From Planctomycetales bacterium (GTDB taxonomy: Bacteria; 4484-113; JAFGCY01): 32,000 nt of DNA. The notes below the pieces were generated by a model, which saw nothing but the letters and a program-made list of their open reading frames with translations, made no database searches and had not been told where the DNA came from. Below are positions 2,578 to 32,000 of this stretch, one piece after another (within the stretch, counting starts at the first letter, position 1; each line of letters opens with the position of its first letter). The position numbers and the translations under genes are program-made. The DNA is taken from the NCBI GenBank assembly GCA_022646745.1, contig CP060262.1, forward strand, positions 3,510,001 to 3,542,000, given 5' to 3'.

Positions 2578-3219
2578 ATGGCTTTGCTGTCGCAGGAATT
2601 GAACGACTACATCGTCGGGCAGACACGCTTTGATGATCCGATCGTCCTCGAGATGGAGGAACGCGCAGCGCGTGACGGCTTCCCGATCATCGGCCCGGCA
2701 GTCGGGCCCTGGCTGTACTTCTTCACGCGGTTGCTGAAGGCCAGCCACGTGTTCGAGATGGGCAGCGGCTTCGGCTATTCCACCTGGTTCTTCGCCAGGG
2801 GGATCAAGGACAATGGCGGCGGCACCGTGACGCATACCGTGTGGGACGAGGGCCTGAGCCGTGATGCACGCGGCTACCTCGAGCGCAGCGGGCTGGCGGA
2901 CCAGTGCGACTTCCAGGTGAGCGAGTCGGTGCTGGCGCTGAGTGGTGCTGCGAGCGGGATCGACATCATCTTCTGCGACATCGACAAGGAGATGTACCCG
3001 AACGCGCTGGACGTGGTGGAAAGCAAGCTCAAGCCAGGCGGGCTGTTCATCTGTGACAACCTGCTGTGGGACGGCAAGGTGATGGCAGCGACAGCTGAAG
3101 GCGACGAGGCCACGGCCGGGGTGAAGGAGATCACGCGCATGCTGCGTGAGTCGCCGCGCTGGGACTTCCTGCTGACCCCGCTGCGCGACGGCGTGGGCTT
3201 CGCGCGCTTCAACGGATGA
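2578..3219 (+). CDS. cation-dependent class I SAM-dependent O-methyltransferase (family 3, CCoAOMT/YrrM-like)
   Basis: SAM motif I is present as VFEMGSGFGYST. The metal and catalytic signatures IFCDIDKEMY and LFICDNLLWDGKV correspond to the FxDADKxxY and DNxLWxGxV hallmarks of this family. Its length of 213 aa is typical. Confidence 0.85.
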   Translation: MALLSQELNDYIVGQTRFDDPIVLEMEERAARDGFPIIGPAVGPWLYFFTRLLKASHVFEMGSGFGYSTWFFARGIKDNGGGTVTHTVWDEGLSRDARGYLERSGLADQCDFQVSESVLALSGAASGIDIIFCDIDKEMYPNALDVVESKLKPGGLFICDNLLWDGKVMAATAEGDEATAGVKEITRMLRESPRWDFLLTPLRDGVGFARFNG

Positions 3220-3983
3220 AGCAGGGAACGGAAGCCAGGCGGATCCTAGATGGCATCAGCTGCCGGACGCCGCACTCCGTTCCAGTACGCAAAGCTGAGC
3301 CCGGACCTCCGTTCTGGGAACAGGACTGGCAACTCAACAAGCCACTGCCCTACCTCGCAACCGGCCTGCCGTGCTTCCCTGAACTGGCCAGGCAGATGCT
3401 GCTGGAGCAGTTCCCGGAGGCAGCCGGGCTTGAGCGCATTGCCGACCTTGACCTGCCGCAGCAGGAAATCCTGGTGGCTGCCGTTGCCAGTATCCACGGC
3501 CCCAGCGGAGCAATCAACCTGATTGACAGTGAATTGATCGATGACCGCTTCAGCCCTGTGCGGAAAATGCTGTCAAAAGATGTGACTGAAAGGCAGCGGC
3601 AACGCCGCAGAGCGGTGATGGATATTGCCAGCACCATATCGATGAAGGTCAAGGAACCCCTATCCGCCCGTTCCACGGGCATGGCGGCTGTGCTGCTGCA
3701 TATCAGCATCTACATCGCGCTGCTGGTATTCAGCTTCGGCATTGCCAGGATCAGCAGTCTCGGCCAGTTGCCCGGCGGGAATGCAATTCCGTTCCTGATG
3801 AACATTGTGGCCTTCTGGATCATATCCCTGTGGCTCAACCCCTTTCGCCGGAGCCGGGATGAGCAGTTGCCAGTCTGGCTGGCAATGTTCCTGTGCATCC
3901 GTGAGGCGGACCGCACGCTGGAGCAGCGGGAGCAGGAACGTAACCAGGAACGGGCAATGCGCAGGCGCAGGCAGGGGAACTGA
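3216..3983 (+). CDS. hypothetical 2-TM protein, possibly a highly diverged member of the downstream array family
   Basis: ATGA start/stop overlap with the methyltransferase gene. It has a soluble N-terminal part of about 150 aa and two hydrophobic helices (MAAVLLHISIYIALLVFSFGIA and IPFLMNIVAFWIISLWL). These are followed by LAMFLCIREAD, positionally equivalent to LALYISFTDEF, and then a charged tail. Confidence 0.55.
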   Translation: MKQGTEARRILDGISCRTPHSVPVRKAEPGPPFWEQDWQLNKPLPYLATGLPCFPELARQMLLEQFPEAAGLERIADLDLPQQEILVAAVASIHGPSGAINLIDSELIDDRFSPVRKMLSKDVTERQRQRRRAVMDIASTISMKVKEPLSARSTGMAAVLLHISIYIALLVFSFGIARISSLGQLPGGNAIPFLMNIVAFWIISLWLNPFRRSRDEQLPVWLAMFLCIREADRTLEQREQERNQERAMRRRRQGN

Positions 3984-4030: not shown

Positions 4031-4738
4031 ATGCTGGCTGACAAGCCCTGGTATGACTACGAAGCGCTGCGGCATATCACGCTCGGTGAACTGAAGACGC
4101 GCCAGTGGATGATCACGAATGAGCAGGCCCGCGTGATTGCGCAGCGGCTGTGGAAGATCACGGAGGACAGCTGGAATCGGGGCCGGCGGCGGCGCATCTG
4201 GAACAACCCGAATGACGAATGGACGGCGATGCGCTTCGTCTCGGGAGCGAGTGGCAGCCTGCCCCACAGCATCAATGAGCTGCGCGGGGTGGACTTCGGC
4301 GACCTGATCGTGGAGGGGCCGGATCGCCTGCGCGAGTGCATTGCCAGGATGAATCCGTTGATGCAGCTGTTCAAGGGCCGGCCGCGGCTGCGCAATACCG
4401 AGGACTGCGCGGACTTCATCGTGCACTACCTGGAATTCATCAGGTATCCCGGCACCAGCCTGACAATGCCCTTCATCCTGGAAGCGATCTGGTGGATTGC
4501 AGTGCTGGGTTTCGTGCCGTTCTGGTTCTGGCTGCAAGGCAGCGCCGGACGGGGCCAGGTCAGCAATGAAGTGATCATCATGGCAATTGCCGCGGTGGCC
4601 GGTGCCAGCCTGCTGACAGCCCACAACAATGGCCGGGCCCGGGTGCGGGCAATGGCGGTGTACATCTCCTTCACGGATGAGTTCATCGAGAGCGATGCGC
4701 CGATGGATGGCAACCTGCCACAGGGCCCGGGCTGGTGA
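4031..4738 (+). CDS. array paralog P1 (soluble N-domain, 2-TM hairpin and YISFTDEF tail)
   Basis: Motifs: DKPWYDYEAL..LGELKTR, ELRGVDFGDLIVEGPDRL, YLEFIRYP, two TM segments, AVYISFTDEFIE, C-terminal GPGW. GGGGAAGG lies upstream of the ATG. Confidence 0.85.
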   Translation: MLADKPWYDYEALRHITLGELKTRQWMITNEQARVIAQRLWKITEDSWNRGRRRRIWNNPNDEWTAMRFVSGASGSLPHSINELRGVDFGDLIVEGPDRLRECIARMNPLMQLFKGRPRLRNTEDCADFIVHYLEFIRYPGTSLTMPFILEAIWWIAVLGFVPFWFWLQGSAGRGQVSNEVIIMAIAAVAGASLLTAHNNGRARVRAMAVYISFTDEFIESDAPMDGNLPQGPGW

Positions 4739-5445
4739 TGGGCATGATGCAGGGAAAACCGACTTATGACGTAACGCTGCTCAGGCATGTCACGATCGGT
4801 GAGCTGAAGGAGCGCATCGGCCGGATCAGCAATCCGCAGGCACGGCATATCGCGGTCGGGTTGTGGCAGGAACTGGCGGGCTGCTGGCGCGGGATGGATG
4901 CGCGGCAGCTCAGGGACAATGCGACGGTCGTGCAGGCGCTGGGCTGGCGGCCGCAGGCACTGGTCGAGCTTGTCAACGTGCTGCGCGGGATGGACTTCGG
5001 GCAGGTGATCATGGAGGGGCCGGAGGGGATGGATGAGTTCCTCGGACGCCTGCATCCACTGTGGCGGATGTTCATGCCGCCGCCGCACCTGCGCCGCAGC
5101 TTTGACAACGCACGGCGCCTGACGCGCTTCCTCGAGTTCTACATCAACCCGGATCGCAGCATGCCGGCCGGCGTGCTCAACTGGCTGAAGCTGCTTGGCA
5201 GCCTGCTCATCGGGCTGGCAATGCTGTACGGCGGGATGCTGTACCTGAAGACGCAGAACCAGCCGCCGCCCTGGAAGCTGGCGCTGGCCGGACTGCCGGC
5301 GATCCTCGTGAACATCGCCGCCGGCCGTGAGTTCCAGGCCTACTTCCGCCGGCGAGTGCTGGCGATCTACATCTCATTCACCGACGAATTCATGGATGAC
5401 GAGAAGCAGTATGACGGCCGCCTGCCGCGCGGCCCGGGCTGGTGA
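4735..5445 (+). CDS. array paralog P2
   Basis: Motifs: GKPTYD, GRISNPQARHIAVGLWQ, LRGMDFGQVIMEGPEGM, FLEFYINP, 2 TM, AIYISFTDEFMD, GPGW end. The GTGATG junction overlaps the P1 stop. The start may be ATG at 4738. Confidence 0.85.
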   Translation: MMGMMQGKPTYDVTLLRHVTIGELKERIGRISNPQARHIAVGLWQELAGCWRGMDARQLRDNATVVQALGWRPQALVELVNVLRGMDFGQVIMEGPEGMDEFLGRLHPLWRMFMPPPHLRRSFDNARRLTRFLEFYINPDRSMPAGVLNWLKLLGSLLIGLAMLYGGMLYLKTQNQPPPWKLALAGLPAILVNIAAGREFQAYFRRRVLAIYISFTDEFMDDEKQYDGRLPRGPGW

Positions 5446-6164
5446 GCATGCTGCAGCGCAAGCCCTACTACGATGAGCACGAGCTGGCGGGCATCTGCTT
5501 TGCGGAACTGCGCGGGCGGGTCGGCCGGATCAGCAACCAGCAGGCGCGGCATATCGCGGTGCGGCTCTGGCAGTTCCTGCAGAAGGCGGCGCAAAGTGAC
5601 GACACCTGGCAGACAGCGGTTGCCAGCCAGGACAGGCCGGGCTTCCTGCTGAAGACCCGCAAGCGCAGGCTGCTGCAGCTGCTGGAACAGCTGCGGGAGG
5701 TGGACCTGGGCGACATGCTGGTGGAGGGGCCGGAGTCGCTGCAGGAACGCTTCAGCCCGACGCATCCACTGGGCCGGCTGATCAGGCCGCAGTGGAAACC
5801 ACGAAACACTGACGACCTGGCGCGTTTCATGCTGGACCACCTGGAGTTCCTGATTGACCCATCCCGCCGCTCGAAGCTCACTGGATCACAGATTGGCAAG
5901 CTGCTGCTGATGATCGTTTCCCTGGCTACCGGCTTCTACTTCCTGCACAGCGTTGTCGGCTTCGCGGCCATTGGGAGCCCATTCTCAGTGCTGATCATCG
6001 TGGCGCTGCTTCTGCTGGTCGGCGCAGAGTATTTTGTGAGAATGAGCCAGGCATCCCCATACGAGACTGAGCAGGTGCTCGCCCTCTACATCTCGTTCAC
6101 CGATGAGTTCATTGACGACGAGCGGCAGTATGAGGACCCACTGGTCGTCAAGGGGGGCTGGTGA
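5442..6164 (+). CDS. array paralog P3
   Basis: Motifs: RKPYYDE, GRISNQQARHIAVRLWQ, LREVDLGDMLVEGPESL, HLEFLIDP, 2 TM, ALYISFTDEFIDDERQYED. The start is either GTG at 5442, overlapping the P2 stop, or ATG at 5448. Confidence 0.85.
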   Translation: MSMLQRKPYYDEHELAGICFAELRGRVGRISNQQARHIAVRLWQFLQKAAQSDDTWQTAVASQDRPGFLLKTRKRRLLQLLEQLREVDLGDMLVEGPESLQERFSPTHPLGRLIRPQWKPRNTDDLARFMLDHLEFLIDPSRRSKLTGSQIGKLLLMIVSLATGFYFLHSVVGFAAIGSPFSVLIIVALLLLVGAEYFVRMSQASPYETEQVLALYISFTDEFIDDERQYEDPLVVKGGW

Positions 6165-6871
6165 TGGATGTCGCCGCGGGCAAGCCCGGATACAGCGAGC
6201 GCGACCTTGATGAGATACGGGGCTCACATCTGCGGGCCCGGGTCGGTCGCATCAGCAACCAACAGGCGCGGCATATCGCGGTCGGACTCTGGCAGATCCT
6301 GGAGGGACAGGTCACCAGTGGCCGGGATAGTCCGACCCAGCTGCCTGACAACTGGAGCCTGCGCAAGCTGGCAATGGGGGGCGGGACACAGCTGCTGCTG
6401 CAGATGGACAAGCTGCAGTCTGTCGATTTCGGGGACATGGTTGTCATGGGCCCGGAATACATGGACGGCTTCCTGGATAACATGCATCCGTTCTACCGCC
6501 TGATTGTCAGCCCGCCTCCGGTGAAGAGCAGTTTTGACATAGCGAAGAGGCTGTATGACTACATGGAGTTTTACACTAACCCCGGCCAGAGCTTTCCGCA
6601 GGAGTTCATGAACAAGGTCCACCTGGTGCTTCTGTATGCCTTCGCCGCATTGGCAGGACTGGCGGAAAGGATGTTCAATACAAACGGAGACATAGACTGG
6701 CTGTTATTGATCATCTTCCTGATTGCCTGCGGTTTGATGCTGCTGTTGTCCTTTGGCCATGGCCGGGCCAGGCGGGTCCGCATCCTGGCACTGTTCATCT
6801 CCTTCACGGATGAGTTCATTGACGACGAACGGCAGTATGACGATCCGGCGGTGGAGGATCCGGGCTGGTGA
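6161..6871 (+). CDS. array paralog P4
   Basis: Motifs: GKPGYSE, GRISNQQARHIAVGLWQ, LQSVDFGDMVVMGPEYM, YMEFYTNP, 2 TM, ALFISFTDEFIDDERQYDD, DPGW end. GTGATG junction with P3. Confidence 0.85.
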   Translation: MMDVAAGKPGYSERDLDEIRGSHLRARVGRISNQQARHIAVGLWQILEGQVTSGRDSPTQLPDNWSLRKLAMGGGTQLLLQMDKLQSVDFGDMVVMGPEYMDGFLDNMHPFYRLIVSPPPVKSSFDIAKRLYDYMEFYTNPGQSFPQEFMNKVHLVLLYAFAALAGLAERMFNTNGDIDWLLLIIFLIACGLMLLLSFGHGRARRVRILALFISFTDEFIDDERQYDDPAVEDPGW

Positions 6872-6878
6872 GCGGCGC

Positions 6879-7631
6879 ATGGGAGAATCAGCGTTGATGG
6901 ATGGCAAAACCGCACTGCGTCGGGAGGGCAAGCCTGCGTATACGCAGGCGGACCTGCAGCGGATCACTGCAGGGGATCTCAGAGCGCGGCTGGAGCGGAT
7001 TGACAACCGGCAGGCGCATGCGATTGCGGCGAAGCTGTGGAAGGCGGTGGAGCTGCAGTACACCAACCAGTACGGCCAGCTGATGCTGAAGGATTCACAT
7101 ACGCTGCTGCGGATGGCCGGCAACTCGCTGCGCCACAGGCTGCTCGCCAGGCTGGAAGCTCTGCGGCGCGTGGACTTCGGCGACATCGTGGTGGAGGGGC
7201 CGCCGCGCATGGAGCTGATGATTGCCAACCTGCATCCCTTCGTGCGCTTCCTGCACCCGCCCCTGCGACTGAAGAAGACGGAGGACAGCGCGGCGCACCT
7301 GCTGCGCTACCTGGAATTCATCGAGAACCCGGAGCAGAGCGTGCCGGAGTCATTCCGCCGCAGCTGGCTGTTCGTGGGTGGGATGTTCGGCTTCCTGATC
7401 ATGCCGATGCTGATGCTGGTGTTGTTCATCGACAGGGTGCGGGAGGCAAAGTGGCTGCTGATCGTCGGCTTTGCGGTGATGCTTGGCGGCGTGATACTTT
7501 CGGGGTTCCAGCTGGCGGGTTTCGGCAGGCTGCGCACGATCTCGCTGTACATCTCGTTCACGGATGAGTTCGTAAACCTCGATGAAGAGCAGGAAATGGA
7601 GAGCGGTGAGCAGGGGGATGCGGAAGCATGA
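6879..7631 (+). CDS. array paralog P5
   Basis: Motifs: GKPAYTQADL, RLERIDNRQAHAIAAKLWK, LRRVDFGDIVVEGPPRM, YLEFIENP, 2 TM, SLYISFTDEFVNLDEEQ. The start is placed at ATG 6879 (or 6897), after the P4 stop. The ORF-track start at 6753 lies inside P4 and was not used. Confidence 0.82.
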   Translation: MGESALMDGKTALRREGKPAYTQADLQRITAGDLRARLERIDNRQAHAIAAKLWKAVELQYTNQYGQLMLKDSHTLLRMAGNSLRHRLLARLEALRRVDFGDIVVEGPPRMELMIANLHPFVRFLHPPLRLKKTEDSAAHLLRYLEFIENPEQSVPESFRRSWLFVGGMFGFLIMPMLMLVLFIDRVREAKWLLIVGFAVMLGGVILSGFQLAGFGRLRTISLYISFTDEFVNLDEEQEMESGEQGDAEA

Positions 7632-8332
7632 CGGGCAAGCCAGGCTATGACGAGGCCCGCCTGCAGGCGCTGACGGTGGCCGAGCTGCGGGACAGGCTCA
7701 GCCGGATTGACAACCCGACTGCGCTGGCGATTGCCACGAAGCTCTGGCAGGCGATGGAAAGCCTGTTCACCAACCAGTACGGCAGCAGCCTGATGCGCGA
7801 TGAATACAGCACCTGGCAGATTGCCGCACGCAACCGCCACAGGCTGCTCAGGCGGCTGGAGGCCCTGCGCCGTGTTGACATCGGCGACTTCCTCGCGGAG
7901 GGGCCGCAGCGGATGGACATGGCTTTGCAGCACCTGCATCCACTGGTGCGCCTGCTGCGGCCTGCACAGAAGGCGAAGCGCAGTGAGGACAGCGCGGACT
8001 GGCTGCTGCGCAACCTGGAGTTCGTGGAGGACCCTGAGCGGCAGTTCCCCGAGGGATTCGTGCGCAGCTGGATCTTCGGCGTCGGGATGTTCCTGACGAT
8101 GGCACTGCCGGTGCTGCTGGTGCTGCTGCTTGCCCCGCTGCTGGAGAACAAGGTAGTGCTGCTGCTGCCGACCTTCGTGATCCTTGTGACGGGGATCCTT
8201 GTTTCGGTGCTCCAGCTGCATGGCTACAGCGTGGTGCGGATCATGGCGGCCTATATCTCGTTCACGGATGAGTTTGTGAACCTCGATGGAGAGCAGGGAG
8301 CAGAAAGCAGGGAGCAGAGTGATGAGACCTGA
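7628..8332 (+). CDS. array paralog P6
   Basis: ATGA overlap with P5. Motifs: GKPGYDEARL, RLSRIDNPTALAIATKLWQ, LRRVDIGDFLAEGPQRM, NLEFVEDP, 2 TM, AAYISFTDEFVNLDGEQ. Confidence 0.85.
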   Translation: MTGKPGYDEARLQALTVAELRDRLSRIDNPTALAIATKLWQAMESLFTNQYGSSLMRDEYSTWQIAARNRHRLLRRLEALRRVDIGDFLAEGPQRMDMALQHLHPLVRLLRPAQKAKRSEDSADWLLRNLEFVEDPERQFPEGFVRSWIFGVGMFLTMALPVLLVLLLAPLLENKVVLLLPTFVILVTGILVSVLQLHGYSVVRIMAAYISFTDEFVNLDGEQGAESREQSDET

Positions 8333-9071
8333 AATGAAGAAGCACCCTCCCCTGCCCGGCAAGCCGGAATACAGAAGAGAAGACATCATTGAGTTGGGTA
8401 AGGAGGAATTACTAAACCGACTAGCACGAGTCAGTAACCCGCTAGCATGGAAAATTGCCGCTGATCTGCTGGTCAAGTCAATGCAAAACGGACCCTCAAT
8501 GCGTAACCGAGACCAGGTACATGCAGACTTGCGCCGGTTATGTGACGGCAAGGAAGCACCTAATCTGTCAGTGAACTTCGAAATCCTGCCACGCCTTGCT
8601 TACACGGCAAGCCTTAGGTATTACCTTGCAACTTTAGATCGTCTTCGCAGTGTTCAATTGTCTGAATACATCATGCTCGGCCCGCATGAAGCGAAGGAAA
8701 TGCTGATGAAAAGGCATCCTGTCCTGAACCTGTTTCCACTCGCAATTCGCCTGCGTCACAGCCGCGATATCGCTGAACTGTTAGTCGATCAGTTTGAAGT
8801 GGTGTCCAGGCCGGATTTCGGCTGGAGTAATGTGATCAAGAGCTACGCCATTTCCGTTGGCGGATTTTTACTGCTGGTCATTGTCAACTTAATGAATTCC
8901 AGCTCAATCATGGGAGCATTGACCATTTCAGCAATTATGCAAGTGATTGGCGCAATCATCTTCAAGCTATTGGCAACCAAATCCGGCCAAGCTCTGCCTT
9001 TGTTCCTTTCCTTCACGGATGAAGTGATGGACGAGCCGGAATGGGCTGCTAAGCAGGGCTCGGAGAGCTGA
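8322..9071 (+). CDS. array paralog P7 (AT-richer member)
   Basis: Motifs: KKHPPLPGKPEYRRED, RLARVSNPLAWKIAADLL, LRSVQLSEYIMLGPHEA, 2 TM, PLFLSFTDEVMDEPEW. The start is ATG at 8322 (11-nt overlap with P6) or 8334. The ORF-track start at 8286 was not used. Confidence 0.8.
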   Translation: MRPEMKKHPPLPGKPEYRREDIIELGKEELLNRLARVSNPLAWKIAADLLVKSMQNGPSMRNRDQVHADLRRLCDGKEAPNLSVNFEILPRLAYTASLRYYLATLDRLRSVQLSEYIMLGPHEAKEMLMKRHPVLNLFPLAIRLRHSRDIAELLVDQFEVVSRPDFGWSNVIKSYAISVGGFLLLVIVNLMNSSSIMGALTISAIMQVIGAIIFKLLATKSGQALPLFLSFTDEVMDEPEWAAKQGSES

Positions 9072-9832
9072 TGGCAGGCAAGCTGAAAAAGCCTCCCCTG
9101 CCCGGCAAGCCGGAATACAGTGACCAGGAAATCCTGCTGATGAGCCCGTTTGAACTGGTTGCCAGGCTGGGGCATGTGTCGAACCCCGCTGCCTGGCGCA
9201 TCGCCGCAGACCTGCTGATCAGGGCAATGGACGAGAAGCCGGCTGCGATGGAGCGTGAGACCATCCATTACAAGCTGCGCAAGATGTGCAACAGGCAGTA
9301 CGTGCCGGAAATCAAGCTGCGCTTCAGCAACCTGCCCAGGACGCGGGAAGGACCAGGCCTGAGGCAGCTGCAGTCACGGCTGGAGCGGCTGAGGCGCGTG
9401 CGGCTGGCGGACTACATCATGATGGGGCCACTGGAGGCGCAGCAGATGCTGCTGGACAGGCACCCGGTGCTCAGGCTGCTGCCGATGGTGCGCCGCCTGC
9501 GCAAGGCATCAGACATAGCCGCATTCCTGGTGGAGAACTTTGAGCTGGTCTCCCGTACGGAGTACAGCATGTGGGATGCGCTGGCCATGCCACTGACGCT
9601 TGTGCTGACAACACTGGTGATCTTCGCCTTCATCTACCAGGATTCCGGTTCGTTCTGGGAGAGCCTGCTGGGTGCACTGTTTGCCCAGACGGTGTTCGCC
9701 ATCGTGAACCGCATCAGGCCGAAGAACCAGCTCGAGGCGCTGTCGCTGTTCCTGTCCTTCACGGATGAGGTGATGGATGAGCTGGAATGGGATGAAAGCA
9801 TCATTGAAGCGGACACAGCGCCGGGGGCGTAG
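9071..9832 (+). CDS. array paralog P8
   Basis: TGATG junction with P7. Motifs: KKPPLPGKPEYSDQE, RLGHVSNPAAWRIAADLL, LRRVRLADYIMMGPLEA, 2 TM, SLFLSFTDEVMDELEW. Clearly the sister copy of P7. Confidence 0.85.
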   Translation: MAGKLKKPPLPGKPEYSDQEILLMSPFELVARLGHVSNPAAWRIAADLLIRAMDEKPAAMERETIHYKLRKMCNRQYVPEIKLRFSNLPRTREGPGLRQLQSRLERLRRVRLADYIMMGPLEAQQMLLDRHPVLRLLPMVRRLRKASDIAAFLVENFELVSRTEYSMWDALAMPLTLVLTTLVIFAFIYQDSGSFWESLLGALFAQTVFAIVNRIRPKNQLEALSLFLSFTDEVMDELEWDESIIEADTAPGA

Positions 9833-9847
9833 CGGTAACATTATCGG

Positions 9848-10528
9848 GTGACCGATGATGGAATCAGGATGGATCCCCATTACTCGGCTGACGAGCTTGA
9901 GGTGATCACCGTGCGCGAACTGAAGGACCGGGTTCGCATGCTGCGCACCGCGCGCGCCCAGCAGGTGGCGCATGAGCTGTGGCGGCAGGCCGAGCTGGTG
10001 TTCACATCCACGAACCCCTGGCCCAAGCGCTTCCTGCGCAATGAGGAGTGCACGCTCCACGGCCTGTGCGGGCCGCTGGGGAGGGGCCTGCTGCTGGAGA
10101 TGCTCGTGAAGCTGCGCAAGACGAACTTCCAGAGGCTGATTGACAACATTGCCCAGACCGAGGGCAGCACCCCGCTCACGATCGGGGTGAAGCCGAAGCT
10201 GCGCAAGGGCCGGCACATCACGATCGACACCGCCGACTTCATGCACAGCCAGCTGGAGAGCATCATGGCCGGCCGGCCGCAGACACCCTTCCACGTGCAG
10301 CGCAACCTGGTCTGCGCACTGTTCGCCGTGGCGCTGGGCTTCGGGCTGTACTCGGCGCGCTGGTGGCTGCTGGAGCAGTTCGGCCACGCGGTCTGGACGG
10401 TGCCCGCGCTGCTGCTGGCGCTGGGCATCAGCTACGGCATCTGGTACCGGCTGACCTACTGGGTGCTGGCCAAGATGCGAATCCTCGCACTGTACATGGC
10501 CTTCACCGACCAGTTCCTGGAACAATGA
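9848..10528 (+). CDS. array paralog P9 (most degenerate; ends right after the tail motif)
   Basis: Motifs: VRELKDRVRMLRTARAQQVAHELWRQ, LRKTNFQRLIDN, 2 TM, ALYMAFTDQFLEQ then stop. Start is GTG at 9848 or ATG at 9869. Confidence 0.72.
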   Translation: MTDDGIRMDPHYSADELEVITVRELKDRVRMLRTARAQQVAHELWRQAELVFTSTNPWPKRFLRNEECTLHGLCGPLGRGLLLEMLVKLRKTNFQRLIDNIAQTEGSTPLTIGVKPKLRKGRHITIDTADFMHSQLESIMAGRPQTPFHVQRNLVCALFAVALGFGLYSARWWLLEQFGHAVWTVPALLLALGISYGIWYRLTYWVLAKMRILALYMAFTDQFLEQ

Positions 10529-11223
10529 TGCAGGAGACCGGGGAGTGGGCGGCAGTCGGGAAACCCAGCTATGACAGGGATCGCCTCAGGCAACTGAAGG
10601 TAGGTGAACTGGAGAAGCGCCTGCAGCGGATTGACAATGAGATCGCACACGAAGTGGCGGCGATCCTATGGAAACGGATTGAGGACATCGGTATTTTCAG
10701 GGCTGCGATCCACGGCAAGAGTACGCGGGATCTGAGTGTCGCGCAGCAGGCCGGGATGGGATCCAGCGTCGTCACGAGGCTGCTTAAGAAGCTGAGGCAG
10801 GTGCAGCTGGCGGAATGCCTGCTGGCAGACAGGGAGCGGCTGGCAGCGATGCTGGAGAACATGCACTGGAGCTGGAAGATGTTCGTGCCGATCCCGCCGA
10901 TGCGGGATGCCCGCAGCCGGGCGGCCTTCCTGACAAACTACCTGGAATGCCTGGTGCCAAACGGCTGGCAGGTGAGCTGGGGCATCAACATGCCGCTCAA
11001 CCTTTTCTTCATTGCCTGGTTCCTGGCATTCAATTATCTGTTCCTGCTTTACGCACCATGGAATGCCCCCAGTTGGCAGTTCACAACGGTGGTTATTTCC
11101 AGCAATCTGCTGCTGCATTCATTCTTCCACTTCAAGAACTACTACTACCAGCTCAGGTCAATCGCTCTTTACATCTCTTTCACGGATGAGTTTGTGGTAC
11201 ATGAACCAGGCGTGACGGAGTAA
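10525..11223 (+). CDS. array paralog P10
   Basis: ATGA overlap with P9. Motifs: GKPSYDRDRLRQL, RLQRIDNEIAHEVAAILWK, LRQVQLAECLL, NMHWSW, YLECLVPNGW, 2 TM, ALYISFTDEFVV. The ORF-track start at 10363 lies inside P9 and was not used. Confidence 0.82.
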   Translation: MMQETGEWAAVGKPSYDRDRLRQLKVGELEKRLQRIDNEIAHEVAAILWKRIEDIGIFRAAIHGKSTRDLSVAQQAGMGSSVVTRLLKKLRQVQLAECLLADRERLAAMLENMHWSWKMFVPIPPMRDARSRAAFLTNYLECLVPNGWQVSWGINMPLNLFFIAWFLAFNYLFLLYAPWNAPSWQFTTVVISSNLLLHSFFHFKNYYYQLRSIALYISFTDEFVVHEPGVTE

Positions 11224-11268
11224 ATCAACTTCACTTCATCCCGGAAATCAGGCAGAATGTGGGTGTAG

Positions 11269-11955
11269 ATGGAAAGCATCGGGGAGACAGCGGTAATCGG
11301 GAAGCCGGCCTATGACCGGGAAGCGTTGAGGCAGCTGACTGTCAGGGACATTGAATTGCGCCTTGACAGGATTGACAACGTGATCGCGAAGGAAGTTGCT
11401 TCGGAATTATGGGCCATCCTGTTTCATGAGGGCGTGATTGCCCACTCGGTGATCGGCAGGATTGTTGCCGAACTCGGGGTCACGCGCATCGCTGGCCATG
11501 GGATGGAACTCCTGATCCTGATCGTGAACCGGCTGCGCAGGATCCAGTTCAGTGAATTCCTGCTGCTGGACAAGGTGCTCCTGAAGGAAAAACTGAGCAA
11601 CATGCACTGGTCATGGCATTCATTTGATTTCCTGCCGTCCAAGCTGGACCGGCAGGGCCGCGTCAGGTTCCTGACTGGCTACATGGAATGCCTGCTGCCG
11701 GATGGCTGGAATGTTCCATGGGAGCGGGCCAGGCTGGCGTACGAGATTGCAAACCCCATTATCGCCATTGCGGCAATCTTCTTCATGCTTTCCCAGCAGG
11801 ATGTCCTGCCAGTGCGGATCTACCTGCCGGTTACGCTGCTGCTGATGCTGGCCTATCCAACGCAGACCTGGCTGGTCAACATGTACCGCAAGATGCGCCT
11901 GCTCGCCCTCTACATCTCATTTACGGATGAGTTCGTTGGAGATGAGCCGGCATGA
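11269..11955 (+). CDS. array paralog P11
   Basis: Motifs: GKPAYDREALRQL, RLDRIDNVIAKEVASELW, LRRIQFSEFLL, NMHWSW, YMECLLPDGW, 2 TM, ALYISFTDEFVG. Sister copy of P10. Confidence 0.85.
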   Translation: MESIGETAVIGKPAYDREALRQLTVRDIELRLDRIDNVIAKEVASELWAILFHEGVIAHSVIGRIVAELGVTRIAGHGMELLILIVNRLRRIQFSEFLLLDKVLLKEKLSNMHWSWHSFDFLPSKLDRQGRVRFLTGYMECLLPDGWNVPWERARLAYEIANPIIAIAAIFFMLSQQDVLPVRIYLPVTLLLMLAYPTQTWLVNMYRKMRLLALYISFTDEFVGDEPA

Positions 11956-13508
11956 ACGAACTCGAGCGCAATGACCGCAGTGACGGGCTGGCAGGTGAGC
12001 GGCGGGATGAGCGAGGGGATTCACTGAAGCAGGGATCGGCAACAGGCGGTGCGGCACTTCGCTCACAGGCCGCTGATGACAATGCGATACAGCATGATGC
12101 GCAGCCCAGATACAGTATCAACCTGCTGGACCGGCCAGGCCTGATCACGGACAGGCGGGCTGCGCGGCTCTGCCACCAGATCCTGAGCTACCTGCAGGGC
12201 CGGCTCTTTACCCGGATCCATTCGAACTGGCCGCTCGGTGGCAATGAACCCGAAATGCAGCACGGCGCAAGGTTCTGGCAGTATGACGAAAAGCCGGAAT
12301 GGTTTCGCGGACTGCTGGCAGAACTGCGCGAGGTGGACTTCGATGAACTGCTGGCGCTCAACCCGCGGGAGCTGCACTTCCAGCTTGACAAGCGCTACGA
12401 TGCCGGGCGGATCAGCATTGGCAACCTGTGGCAGATCAATGATGAGCATGCACTGGTGCTGATGCAGTGCGTACTGTCCCTGAATCCCAGCGGCAGGACC
12501 CGCCTGCCGGGCCTGGCCGGAGGCCTCAACGCCTGGGGAATCGTGTCAATCGTGCTGATCGCCATCTGCCTGCTGGTGCTTGGGAGCATATACGGCCAGG
12601 GCCTGGCTGGTTTCATTCTGGTGCTGCCAGCCGTGGCATCTTTCGGTGTGCTGGCCGCCTACCGTACGGAGAAGATCACGCCGCTGGCAATCCTCGCGCT
12701 GTACATCGCGCTGACGGAGTACTACCTCAGGCGCGAATTGCCGGGCCTGGCCCGGGCAGTGGATGAAGCCGAGGAGTCCCGGCGCAGGCAGCAGGCTGCC
12801 GCTTCGGTGCTGAAGGGCGACCCGCACAGCATGGACAAGCACCACTATGTCAACGACGACCTGGATCGGCTGGATTCGCGGATGCTGCAGCAGCGCCTGT
12901 ACCGGATTGACAACAAGCTGGCGCGCGAGATCGCCAATGAGCTGTTCGAGCGCGTGCGGCGCACCTTCAAGTCTGTGGACTTCCTCTCCAGCGACCCGAA
13001 GTACCGCCCGAGCCTGCGCATGCTGTGTGGCAACGAGGCGATGGGCCTGTTGAAGCAGCTGCGGCGGATGCAGAAGCTGCGCCTGAGCGGGCTGATCATG
13101 GAGGGGCCGGAGTTCGTGGAGCGCATCCTTGGCAATCTGCACCCGATCGAACGCATGATGCAGCCTCCACCGCACCCCACAAGCTCCAGGGGCCTGACGA
13201 AGATCCTGGTGGAGTATGTCGAGTTCTTCGGCGACAGCAGGCGCAGCTTCAGCTGGCGCTTTGGCACGGTCATGAACCTGCTGCTCGGCCTCGCTGCGGC
13301 AGTCTTCCTGCTGTACATCTCGCCCGAAGTGATCCGCGGCATCCTGCTGCTGCTATTCGGGCCGGGATTCCTGTTCCTGTTCTGGGGAGTGCACGCCTTC
13401 ATGCAGAACTCGGAGCAGCGCCTGCTGGCCCTGTACATCTCCTTCACGGATGAGCTGGTGCAGCATGAGCTGGAGCAGCATGGCGGGGAGGCCGGCGATG
13501 GCGCATGA
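11952..13508 (+). CDS. array paralog P12: natural fusion of two family units (about 4 TM)
   Basis: ATGA overlap with P11. Unit a: QPRYSINLL, AARLCHQILSYL, LREVDFDELLALNPREL, 2 TM, LALYIALTEYYL. A charged linker follows. Unit b: RLYRIDNKLAREIANELF, LRRMQKLRLSGLIMEGPEF, YVEFFGD, 2 TM, ALYISFTDELV. Confidence 0.85.
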   Translation: MNELERNDRSDGLAGERRDERGDSLKQGSATGGAALRSQAADDNAIQHDAQPRYSINLLDRPGLITDRRAARLCHQILSYLQGRLFTRIHSNWPLGGNEPEMQHGARFWQYDEKPEWFRGLLAELREVDFDELLALNPRELHFQLDKRYDAGRISIGNLWQINDEHALVLMQCVLSLNPSGRTRLPGLAGGLNAWGIVSIVLIAICLLVLGSIYGQGLAGFILVLPAVASFGVLAAYRTEKITPLAILALYIALTEYYLRRELPGLARAVDEAEESRRRQQAAASVLKGDPHSMDKHHYVNDDLDRLDSRMLQQRLYRIDNKLAREIANELFERVRRTFKSVDFLSSDPKYRPSLRMLCGNEAMGLLKQLRRMQKLRLSGLIMEGPEFVERILGNLHPIERMMQPPPHPTSSRGLTKILVEYVEFFGDSRRSFSWRFGTVMNLLLGLAAAVFLLYISPEVIRGILLLLFGPGFLFLFWGVHAFMQNSEQRLLALYISFTDELVQHELEQHGGEAGDGA

Positions 13509-14235
13509 GCTTGCCGGGGCTTCCGCCCCACCCCGCTATACGGAGGCGGAGCTGGACAGCATCAGCAGCACGGACCTGCATGCCAGGCTGGAGCGGATTG
13601 ACAACGAAACCGCACAGGCGATCGCCGGCCGGCTGTATTCGATGGCGGGCATCGAGCGCCTGGTGATGCGAACTATCCCGCAAGCGGAAAATGCTGAAAG
13701 TGATGAGCCAGTCGGTGAAGACCAGCACTGGGTACGGCAGGACAACAGCCTGCGCCTGCTGGCCGCTGGGCGGCCGCAGGCACTGCTCAACAAGCTCAGG
13801 CAGATGGAAGGGCTGGACTATGGCATGCTGATGGTGATCGGGCCGCAGGGCATCCGCGAGCGGCTGCGCGAAAGGCCGGCCCTGATGCGCCTGCTCAGTC
13901 CCCCGATCAGGCTGGAGCTCAGCGAGGACATCGCCGATGCGCTGGTGCGCTACGGGGAGTTCCTCGCGGCGGAGGATGGCAGGCTGCCCTGGACGCAGTA
14001 CATTCCCTATCTCCCGCTGCTGCCGGCGCTGCTCTGCCTGGCGGTGCTGTTCCCGATGACAATGCTGCCAAAGGTGTTCTTCGCCCTGCCGATGGCAATC
14101 GTGATGCTGCTGATCCTGGGTGCCGGACGCTTCTTCAGCTGGTTCACCAATGAGGACCGCCTGCGCAAGCTGGCGCTGTACATCACCTTCACGGATGAGT
14201 TTGTGGTGGAGCCGGAGGAGGATGGGGAGGCATGA
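13498..14235 (+). CDS. array paralog P13
   Basis: Motifs: PPRYTEAELDSI, RLERIDNETAQAIAGRLYS, LRQMEGLDYGMLMVIGPQG, YGEFLAAEDG, 2 TM, ALYITFTDEFVV. Start ATG at 13498 (11-nt overlap with P12). The ORF-track start at 13450 was not used. Confidence 0.82.
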   Translation: MAHELAGASAPPRYTEAELDSISSTDLHARLERIDNETAQAIAGRLYSMAGIERLVMRTIPQAENAESDEPVGEDQHWVRQDNSLRLLAAGRPQALLNKLRQMEGLDYGMLMVIGPQGIRERLRERPALMRLLSPPIRLELSEDIADALVRYGEFLAAEDGRLPWTQYIPYLPLLPALLCLAVLFPMTMLPKVFFALPMAIVMLLILGAGRFFSWFTNEDRLRKLALYITFTDEFVVEPEEDGEA

Positions 14236-14924
14236 TACAGGCTGACGGAATGCTCTCCGGTAAGCCGAGCTACGCGATGGTGAAGCTCAGGCAACTTGAC
14301 AACCGCATGCTGCCCGCCCGGCTGGAACGGATTGACAATCAAATGGCGCGCAGCATTGCGACGGAGGTCTGGGAGGAATTCCACCGTATGTGGTCCGTGG
14401 ACCACCCAGAGGGAAGCAAGCAGTACCGCAGCCTGCAGTATGTCAATGAACGAGACATGCAGGTGCTGTACGATGAGCTTGAGCGCCTGCGCCAATGCTC
14501 ATTCGGGGCACTGGTGCTGGAGGGCCCGCAGATCCTGCGTGAACGCTGGGATGAGCTGCATCCGATGTTCAGGCTACTGATGCGGCCGCCAGCTGGCAAA
14601 CGGAGCAGCCAGGCCGGTCGCGACCTGCTTGACTATTCCGAGCTTCTGACGGGCCAGCGCAATGGCATACCCGGCGTCCTGATAAGAAACGCCCTGCGAT
14701 ATGGAGCAATACTCTCTCTGGTAATCCTGCCGCTGGCATTGATTGCCAGCATGTTCTGGAACAGCAGCTGGGTATCTTTTGTTCCAATGCCAGGCATCCT
14801 ATACCTGTTCATTTACATGTCCGTCCTGTATCGGGTGGAGAGCAGGCAATACATGAATGCACTCGCGCTGTACATATCGTTCACAGATGAGTTCGTGGAG
14901 GAAGGTGATGTAGATGCAGGCTGA
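14232..14924 (+). CDS. array paralog P14
   Basis: ATGA overlap with P13. Motifs: GKPSYAMVKLRQL, RLERIDNQMARSIATEVWE, LRQCSFGALVLEGPQIL, 2 TM, ALYISFTDEFVEE. Confidence 0.85.
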   Translation: MIQADGMLSGKPSYAMVKLRQLDNRMLPARLERIDNQMARSIATEVWEEFHRMWSVDHPEGSKQYRSLQYVNERDMQVLYDELERLRQCSFGALVLEGPQILRERWDELHPMFRLLMRPPAGKRSSQAGRDLLDYSELLTGQRNGIPGVLIRNALRYGAILSLVILPLALIASMFWNSSWVSFVPMPGILYLFIYMSVLYRVESRQYMNALALYISFTDEFVEEGDVDAG

Positions 14925-15657
14925 GGAAGGGAGTGTTTCCGGCAAGCGGCAGTACAGCTGGGCCGACCTTGAGAGCATCACAAACTTCCAGTTGGCTGAC
15001 CGGCTGCACCGGATTGACAACCCGATCGCGTACCGCATTGCGGATAACCTATACACACATTGTGTCCTGTCCGGCTCGATGCAGTGGCATTCCAGCCTTG
15101 ACCCGGGATATGCCAGACTGCACGGCACCAGCCTGGCAACTGAGGTGTTCGAGGAAGTGCCGGTCAGCCTCAGGCAGCTTGTCAACAGAAGGCCTGCGGA
15201 TTTCCTCAGGTTGCTCAACCGCTTGCGCCTGTTCAGCTTCCGCGAGCTGGTGGCCGGCGGGCCGGAAGCGCTCCGGGAAAGGCTGGATCAACGGCCATTG
15301 CTGGAACGCCTGTTCACGCCTGAGCCAAGGCTGAAGATTACTGAAGACATTGCCCCGCTGATCACTGAACAGCCTGAATGCATTGTCGGGATAAGAACAC
15401 TAGTACCGCAATGTGCGATCCGTGCGATCCAGCCATATTTTCCTGTCCTGTTCACCTTCGGCCCGCTGGCTATTGTGCTGCTGCTCGGCCTGCGCGATTC
15501 CGCCCTGCTGATGCTCGTGCTGCTGCCGTCGATGCTGGCCCTGTTCTACGTGGAGGACCGCATCAAGACAAATGAGCGCCACCTGAGGCTGGCGCTGTAC
15601 ATCACATTCACGGATGAGTTCGTGGAGGAAGACGGAAAGGCGATCGCCAATGAATGA
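14914..15657 (+). CDS. array paralog P15
   Basis: 11-nt overlap with P14. Motifs: GKRQYSWADLESI, RLHRIDNPIAYRIADNLY, LRLFSFRELVAGGPEAL, 2 TM, ALYITFTDEFVEE. Confidence 0.83.
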   Translation: MQAEEGSVSGKRQYSWADLESITNFQLADRLHRIDNPIAYRIADNLYTHCVLSGSMQWHSSLDPGYARLHGTSLATEVFEEVPVSLRQLVNRRPADFLRLLNRLRLFSFRELVAGGPEALRERLDQRPLLERLFTPEPRLKITEDIAPLITEQPECIVGIRTLVPQCAIRAIQPYFPVLFTFGPLAIVLLLGLRDSALLMLVLLPSMLALFYVEDRIKTNERHLRLALYITFTDEFVEEDGKAIANE

Positions 15658-16510
15658 GAATTCCCGGGTGCAGGATCCTGCCCAGCAGCTGGACAAGCCG
15701 TCCCATTCCGTTGATGAGCTAAAGGCTGCCAGCAATGAGGTGCTGCTCAGGCGACTCAGGCAGATGGATAGTCCGCTGGCAAGGCAGGTAGCCGCCGGGC
15801 TGTGGGGCATGCTGTACCCGGCACTTAGCAGTTTTGACGACGAAACGATTGATGACTGGCTGCTGCAGTGCCGGGTGATAGACGAAGGCAGGCGGGACAG
15901 GGCTGGCAAGCAGCAGGACACAGCGCATGCGTCAAACCTGGGCGGAGTCATGCGGGAAGCTGAACTGCGGTGGATGCACGCGTGGCTGGAGAATCTGCGC
16001 AGGACCAGGCTTTCACTGATCCTGATGGAGGACCCGGTCAGTCTGCGTGATGAAATCCTCGCGGACCGCCCGATCCTGCGAATGCTGTTGCCGAAGCGCA
16101 AACTGGAAAGCAGTGCAGACATTGCCCGCTTCCTGAACGAATATTGGCAGCTGTTGCATGACCGCAAGAAGGGAATTCCCAACAGCATATCGATGGCGGG
16201 GAATTTCGCGCTGTTGACATTGATCATGTTGAGTTCCCTACTGGCTAATGTCCTGCCTTACTGGTTGTTCGTCGCATACCTGGTGCTGCTGACGAGCTTC
16301 TGCCTGAAGTACATCCTTGGCCTGTTCTCTATGCCGGGACCTCTGCGGGCCAGGGCCCAGCTGCTGATGCTGTTCATCTCGTTCACGGACGAGTTCGTGG
16401 AGGACAGCAGCCTGCTGCCCGCAGGGAAGGATGAATCCTGTGAAATTGAGGCGCAGGACATTGAACGGAACAAGGACGGAAAGGAAAGGCGGCAGTTGGA
16501 AGAGAACTGA
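15650..16510 (+). CDS. array paralog P16 (last member, long acidic/basic tail)
   Basis: 8-nt overlap with P15. Motifs: RLRQMDSPLARQVAAGLWG, LRRTRLSLILMEDPVSL, FLNEYWQLL, 2 TM, LMLFISFTDEFVED, then a charged tail of about 40 aa. The ORF-track start at 15614 was not used. Confidence 0.8.
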   Translation: MNENSRVQDPAQQLDKPSHSVDELKAASNEVLLRRLRQMDSPLARQVAAGLWGMLYPALSSFDDETIDDWLLQCRVIDEGRRDRAGKQQDTAHASNLGGVMREAELRWMHAWLENLRRTRLSLILMEDPVSLRDEILADRPILRMLLPKRKLESSADIARFLNEYWQLLHDRKKGIPNSISMAGNFALLTLIMLSSLLANVLPYWLFVAYLVLLTSFCLKYILGLFSMPGPLRARAQLLMLFISFTDEFVEDSSLLPAGKDESCEIEAQDIERNKDGKERRQLEEN

Positions 16511-16612: not shown

Positions 16613-16966
16613 ATGCTGTTAGGGATGTTCATGAGGATGCATCGCAAGCGTGCCGACCTGATCCACCTCGTGGTGGAGATCCACAGCAATGACTGGCAGG
16701 ACGCCCCGCCTGAGGGCCCGGGCCTCAGTGGCGTGGAGCAGCCGCTCAGTGCCGCGCTGATGGAGGACAGGATCGGCGAGTTCCTCGGCAGCCGCTGGGT
16801 TGACCTGGCGGCCGGCTATGAGATGGACTTCGTCGTGCTGCCCCAGAGCGTGGTGGCAGCGGTCGGCATCCTGCGCAGTGAACTGAAGAAGCTCGGTGCC
16901 CCGCCGGACACACTGGTGCGGGTGCTCGGTGTACAGGCCGCGGACTACCCGGTCTACGAAGGCTGA
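16613..16966 (+). CDS. small hypothetical protein (no recognisable family), last plus-strand ORF after the array
   Basis: Open frame with GC-rich third positions. The start is ambiguous: GTG 16535, or ATG at 16613, 16625, 16631 or 16637. No TM segment or motif was recognised. Confidence 0.4.
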   Translation: MLLGMFMRMHRKRADLIHLVVEIHSNDWQDAPPEGPGLSGVEQPLSAALMEDRIGEFLGSRWVDLAAGYEMDFVVLPQSVVAAVGILRSELKKLGAPPDTLVRVLGVQAADYPVYEG

Positions 16967-17053
16967 GCCGCAGGGACATGCAGGGTATTGCAGCGGACAC
17001 TGCAGGAAACCACCATTCAGGAAGCAACTGGCTTGGCAACTAAGCTGAACCCC

Positions 17054-19378
<2,325 letters not shown>

Positions 19379-19524
19379 TCTACATGATATAGTCAGGCTG
19401 TTCGCCAAGGTGAACGGGCCGGTGAGCCTTTGGGTGGTCAACAAATGCGGGCAGGATGGCCTGCAGGCTGGGCTGCTTCAGGCGCACTCTCACAAATCAA
19501 GCTGACGAACGTTGGACAGGTGAA

Positions 19525-31401: not shown

Positions 31402-32000
<599 letters not shown>

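Follow-up and report, generated by a model that had tools for sequence, protein, structure and literature searches.

Diverged paralogs arranged in tandem are often immunity genes in bacteria, as in the EsaG/DUF600 arrays of staphylococcal type VII secretion system (T7SS) loci, the clusters of orphan cdiI genes and the immunity islands of type VI secretion systems (T6SS). The gene array described here lies on the plus strand of a 32,000-nucleotide stretch of contig CP060262.1 (GenBank assembly GCA_022646745.1, positions 3,510,001 to 3,542,000), which belongs to an uncultured bacterium of wastewater sludge and is referred to below in its entirety as the window. It encodes a lineage-restricted family of membrane-hairpin proteins in a packed array that is under purifying selection and undergoes birth-and-death turnover at a fixed chromosomal site. 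The array behaves most like the orphan immunity-gene arrays, with which it shares the head-to-tail arrangement of diverged paralogs, the strain-variable number and content, the purifying selection and a common fold with variable surfaces, yet it lacks what defines them, since no toxin or secretion genes stand beside any of the eight related loci. It further differs in having no sequence or fold relation to them, in coding for membrane hairpins with a near-invariant motif and in its conserved core synteny.

Several other described proteins bear a likeness to the units of the array. The chlamydial Inc proteins, which are type III secretion substrates of obligate intracellular bacteria, likewise have a "bilobed" hairpin, in which two transmembrane (TM) helices lie close together and the two termini face the same side, as is predicted here, and form many lineage-specific paralogs, some of them in operons, with soluble helical domains that dimerise in the Inc proteins; however, there is no sequence similarity, and the present family has its large domain at the N-terminus and a conserved juxtamembrane motif after the second TM helix (TM2). 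The two-TM anti-phage effectors of the cyclic oligonucleotide-based (CBASS, Cap15-type) and pyrimidine cyclase (Pycsar, PycTM) defence systems also combine a cytoplasmic domain with a two-helix element that possibly acts via oligomerisation. Unlike those, the units have no significant match in PADLOC and no cyclase or other signal generator, and they occur as an array in the core genome. Finally, TolQ, ExbB, MotA and subunit a of the F-type ATPase resemble the units in size, in being helical membrane proteins and in having helical parts in the cytoplasm, but they possess at least three TM helices and charged residues that are conserved within the membrane, whereas the hairpin of the units has two helices and no conserved residue.

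A packed array of two-helix membrane proteins

Between positions 4031 and 16510 of the window, 16 open reading frames (ORFs) follow one another on the plus strand, 15 of them coding for single units and one for a fusion of two, which gives 17 units. A divergent head gene directly before them raises the total to 17 genes and 18 units. The first-pass annotation had described the 16 genes and 17 units, and these ORFs are confirmed, although the array starts earlier than it had placed it; besides the head unit, it had overlooked the outlying composition of u07 and the decayed copies of a relative. The lengths of 261-298 aa that it had included for some ORFs were inflated by in-frame upstream extensions into the preceding gene, and with unit starts taken from independent gene calls on other assemblies the units measure 219-286 aa, plus the fusion of 518 aa. 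A family profile built from the 17 units and searched against the six-frame ORF set of the window matches every unit with E values from 3e-52 to 9e-84 and no other ORF at E≤1. The tail motif [YF][ILM][SAT][FL]T[DE][EQY] is found in all 17 units and, as had been claimed before, none of the 17 contains an internal stop.

The genes are tightly spaced: 11 of the 15 junctions are overlaps of 1-11 nt (TGATG/ATGA type), one is a gap of 2 nt and three are gaps of 25-45 nt, while the head gene overlaps the upstream methyltransferase gene by 4 nt. The head gene aligns with the relatives P0048, P0049 and P0053 and with genes of the related locus L003 (subgroup alignment A3), and hhalign relates this subgroup to the alignment of the 17 units (A1) with a probability of 96.4% and an E value of 1e-9. 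Pairwise protein identity between the window units is 13-50%, with a median of 24%, and a direct-repeat search at the DNA level detects the units as repeats that recur every 704-775 nt, with 60-85% identity over 56-123 nt; long stretches of identical DNA are missing between the paralogs, so there is no sign of recent gene conversion. The identical gene order recurs on several independent metagenome contigs (L010-L017), and the array is therefore not an assembly artefact.

All units follow one plan, in which an all-helical N-terminal domain of about 135 aa precedes a two-helix hairpin, a near-invariant LALYISFTDEF helix and an acidic tail. The consensus of alignment A1 begins with GKPxY .. L..RL.RIDN..A..IA..LW and a variable segment, continues with LL..L..LR.V.F.....GP......L...HP..RL..P.P and D.A..L..Y.E into the hydrophobic block, and closes with R.LALYISFTDEFV and the acidic tail. 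An AlphaFold2 (AF2) model was calculated for unit u06 from an input alignment of the 17 window paralogs only. The model is confident, with a predicted local distance difference test score (pLDDT) of 89.1 and a predicted TM-score (pTM) of 0.83. Eight short helices cover the part up to residue 134 and are followed by a helix at 142-168, a connecting loop of about seven residues, a long helix at 176-216, which leaves the membrane and extends into the conserved motif of the tail, and finally an acidic helix at 220-231. A hydrophobic block of 55-60 aa occupies the hairpin position in every unit. As measured on 59 non-redundant units, sequence entropy is low in the N-terminal motifs, in the LR.V.FG..EGP/HP/YLEF region and in the tail; positions ~46-75 and the entire hairpin are highly variable, and the hairpin retains only its hydrophobicity, with no conserved residue. 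Since a signal peptide is absent and basic residues are found in the N-domain and after TM2, we infer an N-in/C-in topology in which both ends would be cytoplasmic.

Units u01-u04 (4031-6871) and several units of the relatives end in a conserved DDERQYDDP....(P/G)GW extension with Trp as the last residue, and the other units carry unrelated acidic tails. The extension could be a subfamily-specific docking peptide.

The first-pass annotation could not assign the family, and comparison with reference libraries leads to the same result. Scans of 10 members against Pfam-A and NCBIfam give at best 12-16 bits, all in the TM region, against cut-offs of 26-60; PADLOC yields a single match, of one unit to the CARF_HEPN model (E 0.005, 13 bits), with no partner genes of that system; no unit matches PHROGs; and the family profile searched against PDB sequences reaches at best E 0.33. 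The structural comparison that had been proposed, Foldseek with the u06 model, gives no significant fold match either, the best E values being 0.75 in the PDB (TM-score ≤0.33) and 2.7 in the BFVD. The top PDB matches are TolQ, ExbB and ATP-synthase subunit a, which are generic helical membrane proteins (E 0.75-5, TM-score 0.18-0.33, root-mean-square deviation 14-23 Å). Family and fold are thus outside everything in Pfam-A, NCBIfam, PADLOC, PHROGs, PDB and BFVD, and it is by these libraries that their novelty is defined.

These searches also bear on a possible enzymatic role, in which the cluster of K/Y/R/D/N/E/H/S/T/D/E residues would be an active site working on lipids or envelope precursors at the membrane interface, with the paralogs differing in substrate. 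Invariant or near-invariant polar residues (R23, T213, D214 and K, Y, N and E) do adjoin the membrane, and the degenerate copies described below resemble pseudoenzyme partners. However, neither the PDB sequence search nor Foldseek finds similarity to any enzyme fold, 17 isoenzymes encoded by a single, rapidly changing operon would be out of the ordinary, and no pathway genes lie nearby except an O-methyltransferase of uncertain relevance, which together render the proposal very unlikely.

Constraint, turnover and distribution

The ratio of nonsynonymous to synonymous substitution rates (dN/dS) was calculated by the Nei-Gojobori method on orthologous pairs. Between the window and the close relative HKST-UBA01 it is 0.07-0.49 per unit and 0.21 when pooled over 2907 codons, and 0.13-0.52 in more distant ortholog pairs. 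The flanking genes give 0.09-0.37 in the same genome pairs, so that the units are functional, with a rate of evolution no more than about two times that of the genes around them. By region, dN/dS in close pairs is 0.14 in the N-terminal motifs, 0.17 in the variable segment, 0.08 in the second conserved block, 0.25 in the hairpin, the fastest part, and 0.08 in the tail. The invariant tail peptide is encoded by varying synonymous codons (Ser by TCC/TCA/TCG/TCT, Thr by ACG/ACC/ACA, Asp by GAT/GAC), which places the constraint on the protein and not on a DNA motif. Purifying selection on the copies, as suggested in the first-pass annotation, is borne out by these values. From its substitution pattern the hairpin behaves like a loosely constrained anchor, whereas the variable segment, which differs between subtypes and is conserved within a subtype, shows the pattern expected of a specificity determinant.

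The same data decide against the view that the array represents functionless decaying duplications or an artefact of annotation or assembly. A frameshifted unit and a deletion remnant in one relative could be taken in its support, but all 18 units of the window are intact, and dN/dS, for which a value near 1 had been named as the sign of decay, keeps to the range given above in every ortholog pair of the window and HKST-UBA01. Moreover, orthologs persist in relatives whose tryptophanyl-tRNA synthetase (TrpRS) is only 70% identical in amino-acid sequence, the gene order is the same in independent assemblies and codons vary under the fixed motif, so this explanation is effectively refuted.

In the relatives the locus is always found between thiG and trpS, the common order being thiG on the minus strand, two Zn-ribbon multi-TM proteins, a family-3 O-methyltransferase, the array, a 113-aa ORF, in most of them ASPIC/FG-GAP, and trpS. 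A survey of synteny and copy number had been suggested earlier; it finds the synteny constant and the number of units far from constant, with 6 units in L008 (in 5 genes), 6 in L006, ~13 in L003, at least 14 in L002, 18 in the window and at least 20 in HKST-UBA01, where the count is a lower bound since L004 reaches the contig end and L001 continues. Average-linkage clustering at ~38% identity divides the units into ~26 subtypes, 7 of which are common to at least four loci and many of which occur in one locus only. The window and HKST-UBA01 are ~95% identical, and the units that they share are mostly 92-100% identical (76% for u01) with a dS of ~0.17 or less; at least 11 units differ in presence between the two. 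Seven HKST-UBA01 units are absent from the window, and u02, u04, u07 and u10 are absent from HKST-UBA01. Several such missing subtypes persist in more distant relatives, which indicates differential loss.

Individual units point to further modes of change. Unit u07 has a GC content of 0.50 and a GC content at third codon positions (GC3) of 0.56 against ~0.82 for its neighbours, and because of this low GC3 it has probably been acquired recently by lateral transfer from a lower-GC relative. In L003, which derives from the metagenome-assembled genome (MAG) AC1.30, one unit (2841-3640) is broken by a frameshifted stretch and a 74-aa remnant (5997-6218) has a KPxY start fused straight to the tail motif; both are either decayed copies or assembly errors. 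The 91% identity of u02 to its L002 counterpart was considered as a sign of recent exchange and rejected, as its dS of 0.40 equals that of the flanking genes and u02 is merely more constrained. The evolution of the array by birth and death probably involves tandem duplication, divergence, loss and occasional lateral replacement.

Turnover of this kind has to be reconciled with any model in which the paralogs are obligatory subunits of one hetero-oligomeric membrane machine or scaffold, such as a channel, a stator-like complex or a membrane-shaping lattice. The translational coupling and shared orientation of the genes, the fusions, the conserved degenerate subunits and the 7 subtypes present in at least four loci would all suit such a machine, and the top Foldseek matches, TolQ/ExbB and ATP-synthase subunit a, are of this type. 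Those matches are not significant, however, the hairpin is without a conserved residue and the loop between its helices is not long enough to serve as a pore loop. A fixed composition, whether of such a machine or of the cytoplasmic scaffold put forward in the first-pass annotation, is hard to reconcile with arrays of anything between 6 and 20 or more units and with 11 or more differences between strains ~95% identical, and we regard the machine as decidedly unlikely.

The family is narrowly distributed. An exhaustive profile search of 1.84 billion cluster representatives retrieves 51 relatives at E≤1e-3, 35 of them at E≤1e-30, and about two thirds of the 51 proteins are at least 97% identical to units of the window or of the retrieved loci. 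A pattern scan of 185,579 species-representative genomes, based on a 6-unit subset of the alignment, finds five loci in four MAGs, and 241 million metagenome records of the Joint Genome Institute (JGI) add one contig of 1.3 kb. Word-indexed homolog searches return only 1-4 proteins and miss even the window's own paralogs. All traceable relatives come from one uncultured lineage, probably the GTDB phylum 4484-113 ("Ca. Niteriota"), for which there are 12 genomes with a GC content of 44-64%, from activated sludge. The near relatives HKST-UBA01 and HKST-UBA03, labelled "UBP7", come from saline activated sludge (PMC8495973), and the contig of one relative is labelled Bacteria_4484_113. The labels "UBP7" and "Planctomycetales", the latter being that of the window, were rejected as reliable taxonomy; the relative labelled 4484-113, the GC content and the habitat agree with one another.

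Fusions, degenerate units and possible functions

The fused gene of the window joins a degenerate N-terminal half, u12, which is without the GKPxY and RIDN motifs and has the tail LALYIALTEYY, to a canonical C-terminal half, u13. Fusions of this type occur in four genomes, being kept in L002, L003 and L004 besides the window. A fusion in L008 (10001-11524) is arranged the other way round, the canonical half preceding the degenerate one, and may be an independent event, its identity to the window fusion being ~25%, a level at which orthology is undecidable. Degenerate forms are also retained as separate genes: units of the u09 type occur at six loci, and the window, L003 and L006 have units of the head type, which come first in the arrays of L003 and L006. 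By Rosetta-stone logic and by analogy with pairs of active and pseudo-subunits, the conserved fusions and the retained degenerate subtypes suggest that the units work in physical association. Covariation analysis of 68 sequences (mutual information with average product correction) links the tail residues R211, S218 and E222 with K10, N35 and E138; the losses of K10, N35, S218 and E222 coincide, and R211 is paired with E138. The pattern hints weakly at one composite polar site shared by the units.

A tentative reading, which we hold to be possible but short of an even chance, is that associating units with one conserved polar site and subtype-specific surfaces provide a changeable panel of membrane-tethered recognition or tethering modules. 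Each unit would then be an inner-membrane protein with both ends in the cytoplasm and a hairpin that is mainly an anchor. The polar face of the LALYISFTDEF helix would pack on the N-domain motifs GKPxY, RIDN and YLEF and create the one conserved site, and the variable segment at profile positions ~46-72 would give each subtype its own specificity. The genes would be co-transcribed and translationally coupled, and their products might pair or form larger mixed oligomers in the membrane, including the degenerate partners, so that the cell would display a variable combinatorial panel of cytoplasmic modules for recognition or tethering and not one fixed machine. Among the three ideas of the first-pass annotation, namely a scaffold, an immunity-like battery and a set of specificity variants for a common partner, variants with a common core give the best fit, and the three are narrowed without being settled. 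In a more far-reaching version, which appears doubtful, the array would be a new repertoire system of one candidate phylum, a birth-and-death family whose self-associating, membrane-tethered modules have a new fold. Canonical units would form pairs with degenerate units, and the shifting set of subtypes would recognise or protect against diverse intracellular or membrane targets, akin in function to repertoires of immune receptors or immunity genes yet without kinship to any that is known.

Several observations weigh against a panel of associating recognition modules. The AF2 model of the fusion, made with an alignment of concatenated neighbouring units, has a pLDDT of 60 and a pTM of 0.41 and is unusable, with no interface visible. 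The covariation stems mainly from co-loss in 2-3 subtypes among 68 related sequences and is confounded by phylogeny. The predicted topology is deduced only from the distribution of charges, the lack of a signal peptide and the shortness of the loop between the helices. No region has a dN/dS above 1, as a recognition repertoire engaged in an arms race might show, and rapid turnover is also expected of an immunity or defence locus. Finally, conserved synteny says little on functional linkage, because all of the genomes are close relatives with generally conserved synteny, so whether the flanking genes and the array form a common system is undecidable.

A battery of immunity genes was among the earlier proposals. 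Each unit would neutralise one variant of a membrane-acting or cytoplasm-delivered toxin of competitors and recognise it through the fast-evolving hairpin or through the variable segment, with orphan immunity genes building up side by side. The frequency of immunity genes among tandem diverged paralogs speaks for this model, as do the variation in content between near-identical strains, the decayed copies, the GC-outlier unit and the hairpin as the fastest-evolving part. Nevertheless, neither the window nor the eight related loci contain a toxin, Rhs, contact-dependent inhibition (CDI), T6SS, T7SS or bacteriocin gene. In the window and in L003, L005, L006, L008 and L010, the neighbours are the genes of the order from thiG to trpS given above. 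The position in the conserved core synteny between thiG and trpS, the missing match to a Pfam or NCBIfam immunity family, the canonical-degenerate fusions, which the model leaves unexplained, and the near-invariant polar site and tail in all units, which would be unusual against diverse toxins, likewise argue against it, and we consider it unlikely.

Abortive-infection or defence sensors represent a related possibility, in which the cytoplasmic domain would sense a phage or foreign trigger, the units would oligomerise and the hairpin would permeabilise the membrane, making the array a repertoire of sensors. A cytoplasmic domain with a two-TM hairpin recalls the TM effectors of CBASS, Pycsar and other systems, and the fast turnover with one seemingly laterally acquired unit would be in line with defence. 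On the other hand, there is no significant PADLOC or PHROGs match, the array lies outside any defence island or mobile element and has no nucleotide cyclase or other signalling partner, a translationally coupled operon of 17 genes would be atypical, and dN/dS is at most ~2x that of the flanking genes; the model is accordingly given very little weight.

The window is likewise poor in signs of mobility or programmed variation, in agreement with the first-pass annotation, which had noted no toxin, secretion, recombinase or phase-variation element. Neither an integrase or recombinase nor a toxin or secretion component is found among the larger flanking ORFs scanned, and with regard to mobile elements there is no PHROGs match, no tRNA gene in the window and no direct repeat in the repeat search other than the diverged units, which at 219-286 aa are also larger than holins. 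Phase or antigenic variation finds no support either, given that there is no recombinase, that long identical tracts are missing and that the loop predicted to be exposed has only a few residues.

Gene inventory and surroundings of the array

The genes of the array and its immediate neighbours are compiled in Table 1. The Zn-ribbon pair and the methyltransferase lie directly upstream of the array in the same order in L006, L008 and L010. For the two Zn-ribbon TM proteins no informative family or PDB match is obtained, and a word-indexed search returns only the query protein. The 113-aa ORF is 73-100% identical in L001, L002, L003 and L006 with a dN/dS of 0.13-0.22. It finds no match in Pfam, NCBIfam or PDB and may be considered a candidate soluble partner. 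A single sigma-70-like promoter match on the plus strand (1099-1127) is located upstream of the first Zn-ribbon gene, and within the array promoter-like and terminator-like sites show no excess, being at or below chance. Antisense ORFs of up to 414 aa within the array were considered as genes and set aside as shadow ORFs of high-GC DNA, as they have no family match and are uncalled in independent annotations.

Table 1 Genes of the array and its immediate neighbours. Positions refer to the window; E values are those of the family hidden Markov model (HMM); L numbers denote related loci.
Feature	Position	Strand	Description	Match or composition	Relatives
Zn-ribbon multi-TM paralogs	1191-1877, 1915-2547	+	Zn ribbon N-terminal, multi-TM C-terminal half	Pfam zinc ribbon	
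Family-3 O-methyltransferase	2578-3219	+		Pfam	
Head-type unit	3216..3983	+	255 aa, divergent; helical N-domain, hydrophobic hairpin, degenerate tail LAMFLCIREAD		
u01	4031..4738	+	235 aa, canonical motifs, C-terminus ...GPGW	HMM E 6e-73	HKST-UBA01 ortholog only 76% identical, dN/dS 0.49
u02	4738..5445	+	235 aa, ends ...GPGW	HMM E 9e-84	91% identical to L002.u02; no copy in HKST-UBA01
u03	5448..6164	+	238 aa, ends ...GGW	HMM E 1e-74	Ortholog L004.u03 95% identical, dN/dS 0.12
u04	6164..6871	+	235 aa, ends ...PGW	HMM E 6e-81	L002 and L003 orthologs 83-84% identical; no copy in HKST-UBA01
u05	6897..7631	+	244 aa, core subtype	HMM E 3e-80	Subtype in window, L002, L003, L004, L005, L006, L008
u06	7628..8332	+	234 aa, P0001, H7A35_14260; unit chosen for AF2 modelling; closest paralog of u05 (50% identical)		
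u07	8322..9071	+	249 aa, compositional outlier, strain-specific	GC 0.50, GC3 0.56	Seen in independent assemblies of same strain; no HKST-UBA01 ortholog
u08	9071..9832	+	253 aa, tail LFLSFTDEV	HMM E 4e-66	Ortholog L004.u08 94% identical
u09	9869..10528	+	219 aa, degenerate, widely conserved subtype; without GKPxY and RIDN, tail YMAFTDQF		Orthologs in L002, L003, L004, L006, L008 46-96% identical
u10	10528..11223	+	231 aa	HMM E 1e-75	No HKST-UBA01 ortholog
u11	11269..11955	+	228 aa	HMM E 3e-70	Ortholog L004.u10 93% identical
u12 + u13	11952..13508	+	518 aa, fused gene, two HMM domains	HMM E 2e-54 and 1e-72	
u14	13498..14235	+	245 aa, long variable segment	HMM E 6e-70	Ortholog L004.u15 92-95% identical, depending on aligner
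u15	14232..14924	+	230 aa, core subtype	HMM E 5e-78	L001 100% identical; L002 and L003 65%
u16	14914..15657	+	247 aa	HMM E 2e-71	Subtype also in L002, L006
u17	15650..16510	+	286 aa, longest variable segment, long charged C-terminal tail	HMM E 1e-63	Identical in L001
113-aa ORF	16625..16966	+	Directly 3' of array		Present in all relatives, including L008

Further downstream, two tandem ASPIC/UnbV and FG-GAP paralogs of ~800 aa with 75-83% DNA identity (16988-19378 and 19456-21867, plus strand) precede the TrpRS gene; L006 has no such gene, L008 has one and HKST-UBA01 apparently has three. TrpRS (22085-23590, plus strand) is 501 aa and thus much longer than typical bacterial TrpRS, and the split of its Pfam match into two parts implies an extension at the N-terminus and an insertion inside the protein. 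An 897-aa ORF on the minus strand (24962-27655) is without any Pfam or NCBIfam match. At the end of the window, the 5' end of a 23S rRNA gene (31402-32000, plus strand; Rfam LSU_rRNA_bacteria, 505 bits) leaves the stretch, and the 3 kb upstream of it are taken up by a minus-strand ORF of 805 aa with a dockerin domain, so that the 23S gene appears unlinked from 16S.

Uncharacterised lineage-specific families are common in uncultured bacteria, and the present one has as yet no link to a long-standing question. Part of the reason for which such expansions may escape notice is technical: short-read assemblies tend to break inside the array, as 13 of the 19 contigs with unit 6 are shorter than 2 kb, and word-indexed searches miss most members, so that expansions of this type are easily overlooked. 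The ~26 subtypes, with their canonical and degenerate forms, fusions and fast turnover at a fixed chromosomal site, amount to a natural experiment from which the specificity determinants and assembly rules could be read by comparison. If the proposed model is true, the array would give bacterial cell biology a protein fold not described before and an expandable repertoire of membrane proteins of a new type, in a candidate phylum, probably 4484-113, whose cell biology has so far been without description.

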